Shown one piece after another: positions 44,151-44,951 of a stretch of 64,000 nt of DNA. The DNA is from Pocillopora damicornis (Eukaryota). Numbering within the stretch: position 1 is the stretch's first letter; every line of letters starts with the position of its first letter. The position numbers and the translations under genes were made by a program. Under the pieces are notes generated by a model, which searched no databases, was not told the DNA's origin, and was given only the letters and a program-made list of their open reading frames with translations. Location of the stretch: positions 310,001 through 374,000 of the forward strand of contig NW_020844984.1 in assembly GCF_003704095.1 (NCBI RefSeq). Direction: 5' to 3'.

Positions 44151-44951
44151 ATGAAGCTACAAAAGATTTTGTTATTGTGCGTTTTGATTCTCGCATTCAT
44201 CGAGATGGATTTTTCAGAAGCCGCTCGAGGAGGGCGCAGTGGAAGTCGCGGTGGCAGCAGTTCACGATCGCGCAGTACTTCAAGAAATAGTGGATCTAGT
44301 AGATCTAGGTCGTCAGGGGGAAGTAACACCGTTTACAAAACCACCAAAAACACACCGATCCCAGCTACGAGTAAGCGTTCGCCGGTCATTGTAACTCAAA
44401 CAACAAAGGGCTTGCGCACAAACACTTTTACGAAGGTTTTCGTCGGCTATATGGTGGTTCGCTACACTTTAGGCAATGCCAAAGTTTACCGGTACGGGTA
44501 TCCCATGTACCGAAGCTACGTCATCATTCCCAAAGACCGAGCTGTGAGGCTTGCCTCTGAAGAAAGCAAACTCATGGATGCGGATGGCAGCTTGTGTGTG
44601 AACGAAACGAAGAAAGGGAAGATGCAAAATCTAAGAGAGGGAATCGACGAATATTTACTGGAACTCAACACAACAATCATGTACAAAAAAACCGGAGATG
44701 TACTCAGACGTACAGGAATCAATCAAACGGTGTCTCTAAAGGACATCAAAGACGAGGATTTTGTGCTCACGAGCAATGCTCGGTACAACATAACCATCGT
44801 AAATGGAACAAACTGCACACAACTCGAGAAGAAAGTTGAAGGAACCATGGTGATCATGTACCAAACCAATCCGAATACCGCGGGCACAGTTTACATCAGT
44901 TGTAAACTGCTTCTCGCTGGAATTGCGCTTCTTCGTTTTCTTAATATGTAA
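44151..44951 (+). CDS. Uncharacterised secreted, probably GPI-anchored glycoprotein (266 aa) with RGG/SR-rich N-terminus; prion/Shadoo-like layout
   Basis: Signal peptide (MKLQKILLLCVLILAF..SEA); RGGRSGSRGG..SRSRS; central hydrophobic VFVGYMVVRYTLG; two internal Cys; six NxT sequons; C-terminal NPNTA..LLLAGIALLRFLNM; single uninterrupted ORF. Confidence 0.88.
   Translation: MKLQKILLLCVLILAFIEMDFSEAARGGRSGSRGGSSSRSRSTSRNSGSSRSRSSGGSNTVYKTTKNTPIPATSKRSPVIVTQTTKGLRTNTFTKVFVGYMVVRYTLGNAKVYRYGYPMYRSYVIIPKDRAVRLASEESKLMDADGSLCVNETKKGKMQNLREGIDEYLLELNTTIMYKKTGDVLRRTGINQTVSLKDIKDEDFVLTSNARYNITIVNGTNCTQLEKKVEGTMVIMYQTNPNTAGTVYISCKLLLAGIALLRFLNM

Follow-up and report, generated by a model that had tools for sequence, protein, structure and literature searches.

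In the 64,000-nucleotide stretch of the coral Pocillopora damicornis genome analysed here (contig NW_020844984.1, positions 310,001–374,000; the window, numbered from its first letter), an intronless coding sequence on the plus strand (44151–44951) encodes a 266-residue protein which belongs to an undescribed, Anthozoa-wide and expanded family of probable surface glycoproteins. The gene is transcribed without splicing, it is under selection together with its relatives, its product shows a marked polarity of charge and its promoter carries a conserved element; a signal peptide, a glycosylphosphatidylinositol (GPI) anchor, a fold and a disulfide are predicted. On balance we favour CREB/ATF-controlled expression of an exported glycoprotein that a GPI anchor keeps on the cell surface, where its tail and a basic lobe would bind polyanions of matrix, mucus or microbes. 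An earlier sequence-only reading had compared the product with the prion protein (PrP) and Shadoo; homology to PrP, Doppel or Shadoo is unsupported.

The gene, its transcript and its family

RNA contigs cover the gene as one unspliced piece (~44000–45384) in six of the seven RNA or presumed-RNA runs (X1, X3, X5, X2, X6 and X9) and in three pieces in the seventh (X12), and no joints were found within the gene in contigs from several studies. These contigs carry neither strand, exact ends nor expression level; the transcribed span (44000–45384) is accordingly approximate and its plus orientation is taken from the open reading frame (ORF), with an AATAAA on the same strand at 45362–45367. No RNA contig covers 42342–43343, and this empty interval together with the unbroken cover over 44000–45384 indicates that the gene is transcribed and intronless, so that the single-exon structure proposed earlier is borne out. 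The Pocillopora meandrina gene model P0292 (CAH3106747.1) joins this ORF (window 44151–44937) to a spliced G-patch gene downstream (46524–54085), and its UniRef name, 'G patch domain-containing protein 4', is taken from the fused G-patch part. RNA contigs keep the two genes apart, with the ORF transcript ending at ~45384 and the G-patch sequence spliced to an exon that ends at 46597; the fusion is likely an annotation artefact.

A search with the single protein returned 153 relatives at E≤0.001 among 4,206 candidates, and phmmer over 1.84 billion representatives (50% clustering) returned 110 at the same threshold, of which 39 of the more distant were examined individually. Named members come from stony corals (Oculina, Stylophora, Montipora, Acropora, Porites and Pocillopora), the anemones Nematostella and Actinia and the octocoral Paramuricea clavata; all are called 'uncharacterized' or 'hypothetical'. 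No non-anthozoan name occurs among the named relatives, most relatives being without an organism name. Such entries as Nematostella LOC116618274, Actinia LOC116308553 and LOC116308550, Oculina LOC144654616, Pocillopora LOC113675106 and Paramuricea CAB4037900 belong to the same family and are automatic gene models without a Pfam family. No Pfam family fits our protein or the family members. The octocoral record falls in the distant clade, whose alignment with the near clade spans 208 columns at a probability of 100%. A description of the family was not found in the main texts of the literature by accession or by motif.

Over residues 62–241 the ratio of nonsynonymous to synonymous divergence (dN/dS) is 0.11–0.24 between the window gene and eight relatives and 0.27–0.61 in 19 closer pairs, remaining below 0.62 in all 27 pairs, as estimated by the simple Nei–Gojobori method, which is near saturation for the distant pairs. 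There are 13 family matches in the genome. Apart from the window gene, all of them (12) lie in a tandem array of 50 kb on contig C2496 (C2496:151728–206921, L015–L020); it holds about a dozen copies, of which some four are intact and several are broken, and four of the 12 matches have internal stops. A quick tree of 91 rows places the window gene inside a 17-row group (SH-aLRT 90, unstarred), separate from the C2496 copies.

Predicted layout and fold

The layout described in the sequence-only reading, with a signal-like start, an RGG/SR tract, two motifs, six NxT sequons, two domain cysteines and a hydrophobic end, is present in full. The predicted signal peptide (residues 1 to ~24; 44151–44222) has an 11-residue Kyte–Doolittle peak of 3.57, with the cut site placed by the family pattern. 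The polybasic tail which follows (residues 25–59; 44223–44327), optional in the family, starts with two RGG units and continues as SR/SG low complexity; residues 25–60 contain 15 Ser, 8 Arg and 8 Gly for a net charge of +8, and the predicted local distance difference test score (pLDDT) below 50 at residues 25–28 and 32–49 suggests disorder. Both quoted motifs, VFVGYMVVRYTLG and VYRYGYPMYRSY, are found in the ORF, the sequons are at 151, 173, 191, 213, 218 and 221, and cysteines are at 10, 149, 222 and 251, with 149 and 222 inside the domain. The C-terminal end is hydrophobic (peak 2.3) and forms a predicted GPI-type signal (44874–44948), in which the small residues N242-T-A-G are followed by a short spacer and a hydrophobic end with no cytoplasmic tail. 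Our GPI calls were made with an omega-site rule of our own and hydropathy rather than with a GPI predictor; both signal and anchor are predicted in this way for the 266-residue protein. The proposal of a secreted glycoprotein with a polycationic RGG/SR tail, probably GPI-anchored, is therefore supported at the level of prediction.

AlphaFold2 was run as two jobs of five models each, for the whole protein (mean pLDDT 82.7–86.0) and for residues 60–244 (92.9–94.5). The latter residues (44328–44882) are predicted to form a single folded, nearly all-beta domain which carries the six sequons and the Cys149/Cys222 pair; according to DSSP, the predicted model (pLDDT 94.5, predicted template modelling score 0.87) contains 13 strands and one 4-residue helix, and 165 of its 185 residues reach a pLDDT of at least 90, which is not the disorder of a Shadoo-type mature chain; the whole-protein run gave a similar picture of strands. 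The globular region, thought to comprise ~120 residues, thus needs to be corrected to about 180 (60–241), taking in the hydrophobic and Tyr/Arg-rich segments. The central hydrophobic stretch VFVGYMVV (residues 96–103; 44436–44459) does exist as a sequence, but it is weak (19-residue hydropathy peak 0.66) and is predicted to be part of the folded domain, as strands at 96–98 and 100–104 with pLDDT 89–97. With 8 uncharged residues, 12% Ala+Gly and no GxxxG, and ordered as strands, it was rejected as a PrP-type hydrophobic domain. The two domain cysteines are 73 residues apart in a beta context and a disulfide between them is predicted. Fold searches with the predicted domain found no close solved match among the listed structures: fibronectin-III/Ig-like sandwiches and MD-1/MD-2 (ML domain) gave background scores, with root-mean-square deviations of 3.3–6.3 and at most about half of the domain aligned. 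The many beta-strands, which the sequence-only reading had itself named as counting against kinship with helical PrP, are seen in the predicted fold, although no unrelated known fold was matched.

Cys149 and Cys222 are invariant in all 52 non-redundant rows of the family alignment. The best conserved part is the Tyr/Arg-rich segment (residues 110–135; 44478–44555), with a mean column conservation of 0.65 vs 0.44–0.55 elsewhere and with R130, A131, R133 and Y113 kept in 92–98% of these rows. In the same rows residues 62–135 are basic (median +10, range +1 to +18) and residues 136–241 acidic (median −4, range −11 to +4). Among 48 non-redundant full-length members a signal-like start is found in 41 and at least seven Arg plus Lys before the core in 36; the C-terminus is GPI-like in 38, longer or transmembrane-type in five and neither in the remaining five (one truncated, one just below threshold). 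The RGG tail is absent, for example, in P0141, P0147, P0189, L042:11891 and L063. Taken together, the charge, the conservation and these counts indicate that the constant part of the family is the beta domain with its basic aromatic lobe, and that tail and anchor vary.

A tail-less subgroup (L063:6138–6821, L065, L072; L042:11891–12622; L045:11785–12516 and 16792–17523) has two branches. One ends in a polar Thr/Pro/Lys stretch without a hydrophobic anchor and is probably secreted, and the other has a Thr/Pro-rich stalk added ahead of the anchor; both retain a cAMP response element (CRE) 110–125 bp upstream. The divergent members P0177, P0201, P0205 and P0229 combine a transmembrane-like end with a basic tail, which suggests type I membrane versions.

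The promoter element and the neighbouring receptor genes

A full CRE, placed ~260 bp upstream by the sequence-only reading, was found 266 bp before the ATG (43885–43892) and is, moreover, conserved, as part of a 20-bp element on the plus strand (43874–43893) whose upstream half loosely resembles an RFX X-box. The element is 18–19/20 identical upstream of L035, L037, L039, L041, L059 and L061, that is, at six of the seven sister-clade loci tested, where L059 and L061 were placed in the clade by N-terminal and upstream sequence and not by tree. Shuffled controls reach at most 16/20, 3' flanks 14–16 and 12 other family loci 13–16. Since synonymous divergence to four of the sister-clade loci with the element is already 1.6–2.8 and the element occurs as a single copy in the whole genome, it is constrained and not a repeat. 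More broadly in the family, a full CRE lies 108–266 bp upstream of 26 of 45 gene starts (those with at least 300 bp of flank; 400 bp scanned), in 9 of 20 upstream-sequence clusters, against a background of 0.045 per 400 bp in other fetched DNA. From the CRE consensus we infer that the element would bind CREB/ATF and that expression would be CREB/ATF-driven. Five further CREs are found elsewhere in the genome (L022, C2496:220000–230000), at 225.7–229.7 kb beside exon fragments which we take by eye to be a lipoxygenase and a catalase-related domain of the allene oxide synthase-lipoxygenase type, one fragment being without a Pfam match.

The window also holds eight intronless ORFs (4376–39661; 319–358 residues, mixed orientation) for rhodopsin-family G-protein-coupled receptors (GPCRs). 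The nearest, GPCR8 (38672–39661, minus strand), matches PF00001 with E 9.5e-34; it is the one among the eight which the PF00001 scan covered and for which RNA contigs were seen. The head-to-head arrangement with GPCR8 reported earlier holds as far as the divergent orientation is concerned, but the gap is 4.5 kb and contains repeat-like DNA of high depth; the short repeat-like stretches at 40338–41673, where contig depth is very high and loose ends abound, are probably dispersed repeats. All seven CREs of the window lie at 3393–43892, and for three of the eight GPCR ORFs the 2 kb upstream include one, a possible sign that cAMP feeds back on the receptor array. At the far end of the window, a 158-residue ORF (62663–63139, minus strand) with a signal-like start, a KR site and no Pfam match may be the opening exon of a gene for a secreted precursor.

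Likeness to prion proteins and competing explanations

In the reading that we favour, a signal peptide would direct export and a GPI anchor would hold the domain on the cell surface. This single beta-sheet domain, N-glycosylated and closed by a disulfide, would have no relation to the helical fold of prion proteins. The disordered RGG/SR tail and the basic Tyr/Arg-rich N-terminal lobe would grip polyanions, for instance acidic proteins, the surfaces of microbes or sulfated matrix or mucus glycans, and the protein would act as a surface tether or scaffold; paralogues would modify this arrangement, some lacking the tail, some having a Thr/Pro stalk in addition, and some with the anchor exchanged or absent. 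A conserved Arg/Tyr surface beside a flexible polycation is the usual design for binding glycans and other polyanions. For polyanion binding as such we regard the case as evenly poised. The skeletal matrix of corals is described, in passages of one source, as polyanionic, with probably sulfated sugars and many GPI-anchored proteins (PMC4043741); the presence of the family in anemones as well shows that it is not confined to calcification. Several observations weigh against this reading. Polyanion binding is deduced from charge, and a paper on mucus yielded no passage on sulfation or charge. Fewer than seven Arg plus Lys precede the core in 12 of the 48 members, which means that the tail is dispensable, and our GPI rule may miscall some transmembrane tails. 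The CRE is missing at all six tested starts of the genome's own C2496 array, and the window has seven CREs where 0.77 would be expected in 64 kb, so that a single CRE means little without conservation. Finally, in a feature search of the ESM-Atlas, PrP clusters came first among the named families, scoring 0.86 with the whole protein as query and 0.84 with residues 60–243.

The last point, together with 0.83 for Shadoo, bears on the possibility of genuine if remote homology to PrP/Shadoo, in the N-terminal half if not throughout. The order of elements is indeed the same. With PrP/Doppel (PF00377) the predicted layout of the coral protein shares a signal peptide, a basic disordered N-terminus, a glycosylated domain with a Cys pair, a GPI-type end and a one-exon ORF (PMC4324250; passages in PMC3203146), and with Shadoo (SPRN, PF14999) an Arg/Gly-rich N-terminal tail, a GPI-type end, NxT sites and a single coding exon; GAVVG-like stretches also occur in the most distant clade (P0178, P0196, P0206). 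The single exon is, however, weak evidence, because the eight neighbouring GPCR ORFs and a gene for the mannosyltransferase ALG11 beside the C2496 array are also single ORFs. Feature scores below 0.9 are leads only, and the 148 and 144 features shared out of 256 fall short of the 170 that true family members usually share. Fungal DUF7732, arthropod DUF4813 and nematode CX-module proteins were returned by the same search at 0.78–0.85, suggesting a similar layout, and have no Pfam match to the coral protein; their presence in the list indicates that the search scores layout, and we read the similarity as a real likeness of layout and composition. PrP folds into three helices with two short strands and Shadoo forms a random coil (PMC4324250), in contrast to the all-beta fold predicted for the coral protein. 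The latter lacks the PrP His octarepeats (no His in residues 25–242, hence no copper-binding repeats), the 20-residue Ala/Val hydrophobic domain and any profile match, and its genes form a multigene family, unlike the single-copy PrP/Doppel genes. Shadoo, whose N-terminus is marked by Arg/Gly tetrarepeats (XXRG), has ~98 mature residues with GxxxG repeats, against a predicted 180-residue folded domain here; the coral tail is Ser-rich with few RGG units, and the hydrophobic tract of the coral protein has 8 residues; across the family GxxxG occurs in 5 of 52 rows, an uncharged run of at least 15 also in 5 of 52, and the tract is polar in some paralogues. The Prion family has no match to the protein at E≤10. 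Of the 64 Pfam families returned for 108 members, 25 were listed, and Prion is not one of them; Shadoo matches two of the members (best E 0.13), with P0196 scoring 12.8 bits against a cut-off of 27 in the RG tract only. With profile A2 no PDB sequence was matched at E≤10, profile A5 gave a single unrelated match (E 0.86), and PrP/Doppel chains do not appear among the listed structure-search matches. The Prion and Shadoo hidden Markov models miss the window gene in genome scans, though one of these scans matched nowhere at all and is weak as evidence; the genome's sole PF00377 match lies elsewhere (E 3.2). Prion genes are reported, in passages of PMC3203146, as vertebrate-restricted and derived from a ZIP retrocopy, and the cysteine-flanked core as present in cnidarian ZIP genes. 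The comparison with ZIP ectodomains fails as well: ZIP Pfam families match neither the protein nor family members (longer fused forms were outside the search), and a separate exon with a CPAL-type motif (C1274:223156–223275, L091), which matches the ZIP ectodomain PF21116 below cut-off (E 0.003) and is probably the coral's real prion-like ZIP ectodomain, receives at most 3.6 bits from the family profile. Homology is thus already largely refuted: we are highly confident that the protein is not homologous to PrP/Shadoo, and a remote homologue is about the least credible of the explanations considered here. The likeness of layout would be due to convergence, and the protein may work like PrP or Shadoo without being a member of their family.

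Another view makes the protein a partner of the neighbouring GPCRs, either an accessory subunit or a tethered ligand, regulated together with them from one divergent promoter; we regard it as very improbable. The orientation, RNA contigs for both genes in the same runs and the CREs near three of the receptors would fit it, but GPCR8 has no CRE within 2 kb, the repeat-bearing gap intervenes, and 12 of the 13 genomic matches lie in the C2496 array, head-to-head with the intronless ALG11 ORF, a link also seen in L042, L045 and L058 from other samples. No match to the eight receptors was found in any fetched locus, including 90 kb of C2496 and 60 metagenome loci (256 kb), although in most metagenome loci the flank does not reach the 4.5 kb that would show the linkage. 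A functional link to the receptor array therefore finds no support in the C2496 array or the metagenome loci; true orthologues may still be linked to the receptors beyond the short flanks. Of greater weight, although still rather unlikely, is a role in cell recognition or adhesion, in which a far-diverged fibronectin-III/Ig-like beta-sandwich would bind a specific protein partner or itself and the basic tail would be accessory. Innate defence, with the cationic RGG/SR tail shed or displayed as an antimicrobial peptide, or with the beta-domain binding microbial lipids like MD-1/MD-2, seems to us a good deal less plausible. We also entertain, tentatively, the idea that anthozoans independently built an analogue of PrP: an intronless, CRE-controlled family in which a GPI-anchored glycodomain, tied by a disulfide and built on a beta fold new among solved structures, would carry an RGG polycation and a Tyr/Arg-rich arm and do the same surface-scaffold job as PrP/Shadoo.

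A tempting false lead, a coral prion homologue, is thereby removed, and what takes its place is a family with a confidently predicted domain lacking a close solved match and with a conserved promoter CRE. Such proteins would be located where corals meet mucus, matrix and microbes. If PrP/Shadoo homology were true after all, the origin of the prion family would move back to the cnidarian–bilaterian ancestor. If instead the tail-plus-GPI layout works as in PrP/Shadoo, the family would serve as an independent model in which to study what the layout normally does, a question still unsettled; if it does not, the protein would be a good target for structural genomics and would probably mark a type of secretory cell that responds to cAMP or stress. 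Should the independent-analogue idea be true, repeated invention, possibly also in DUF7732, DUF4813 and CX proteins, would show the purpose of the layout, and Nematostella would make it genetically testable.
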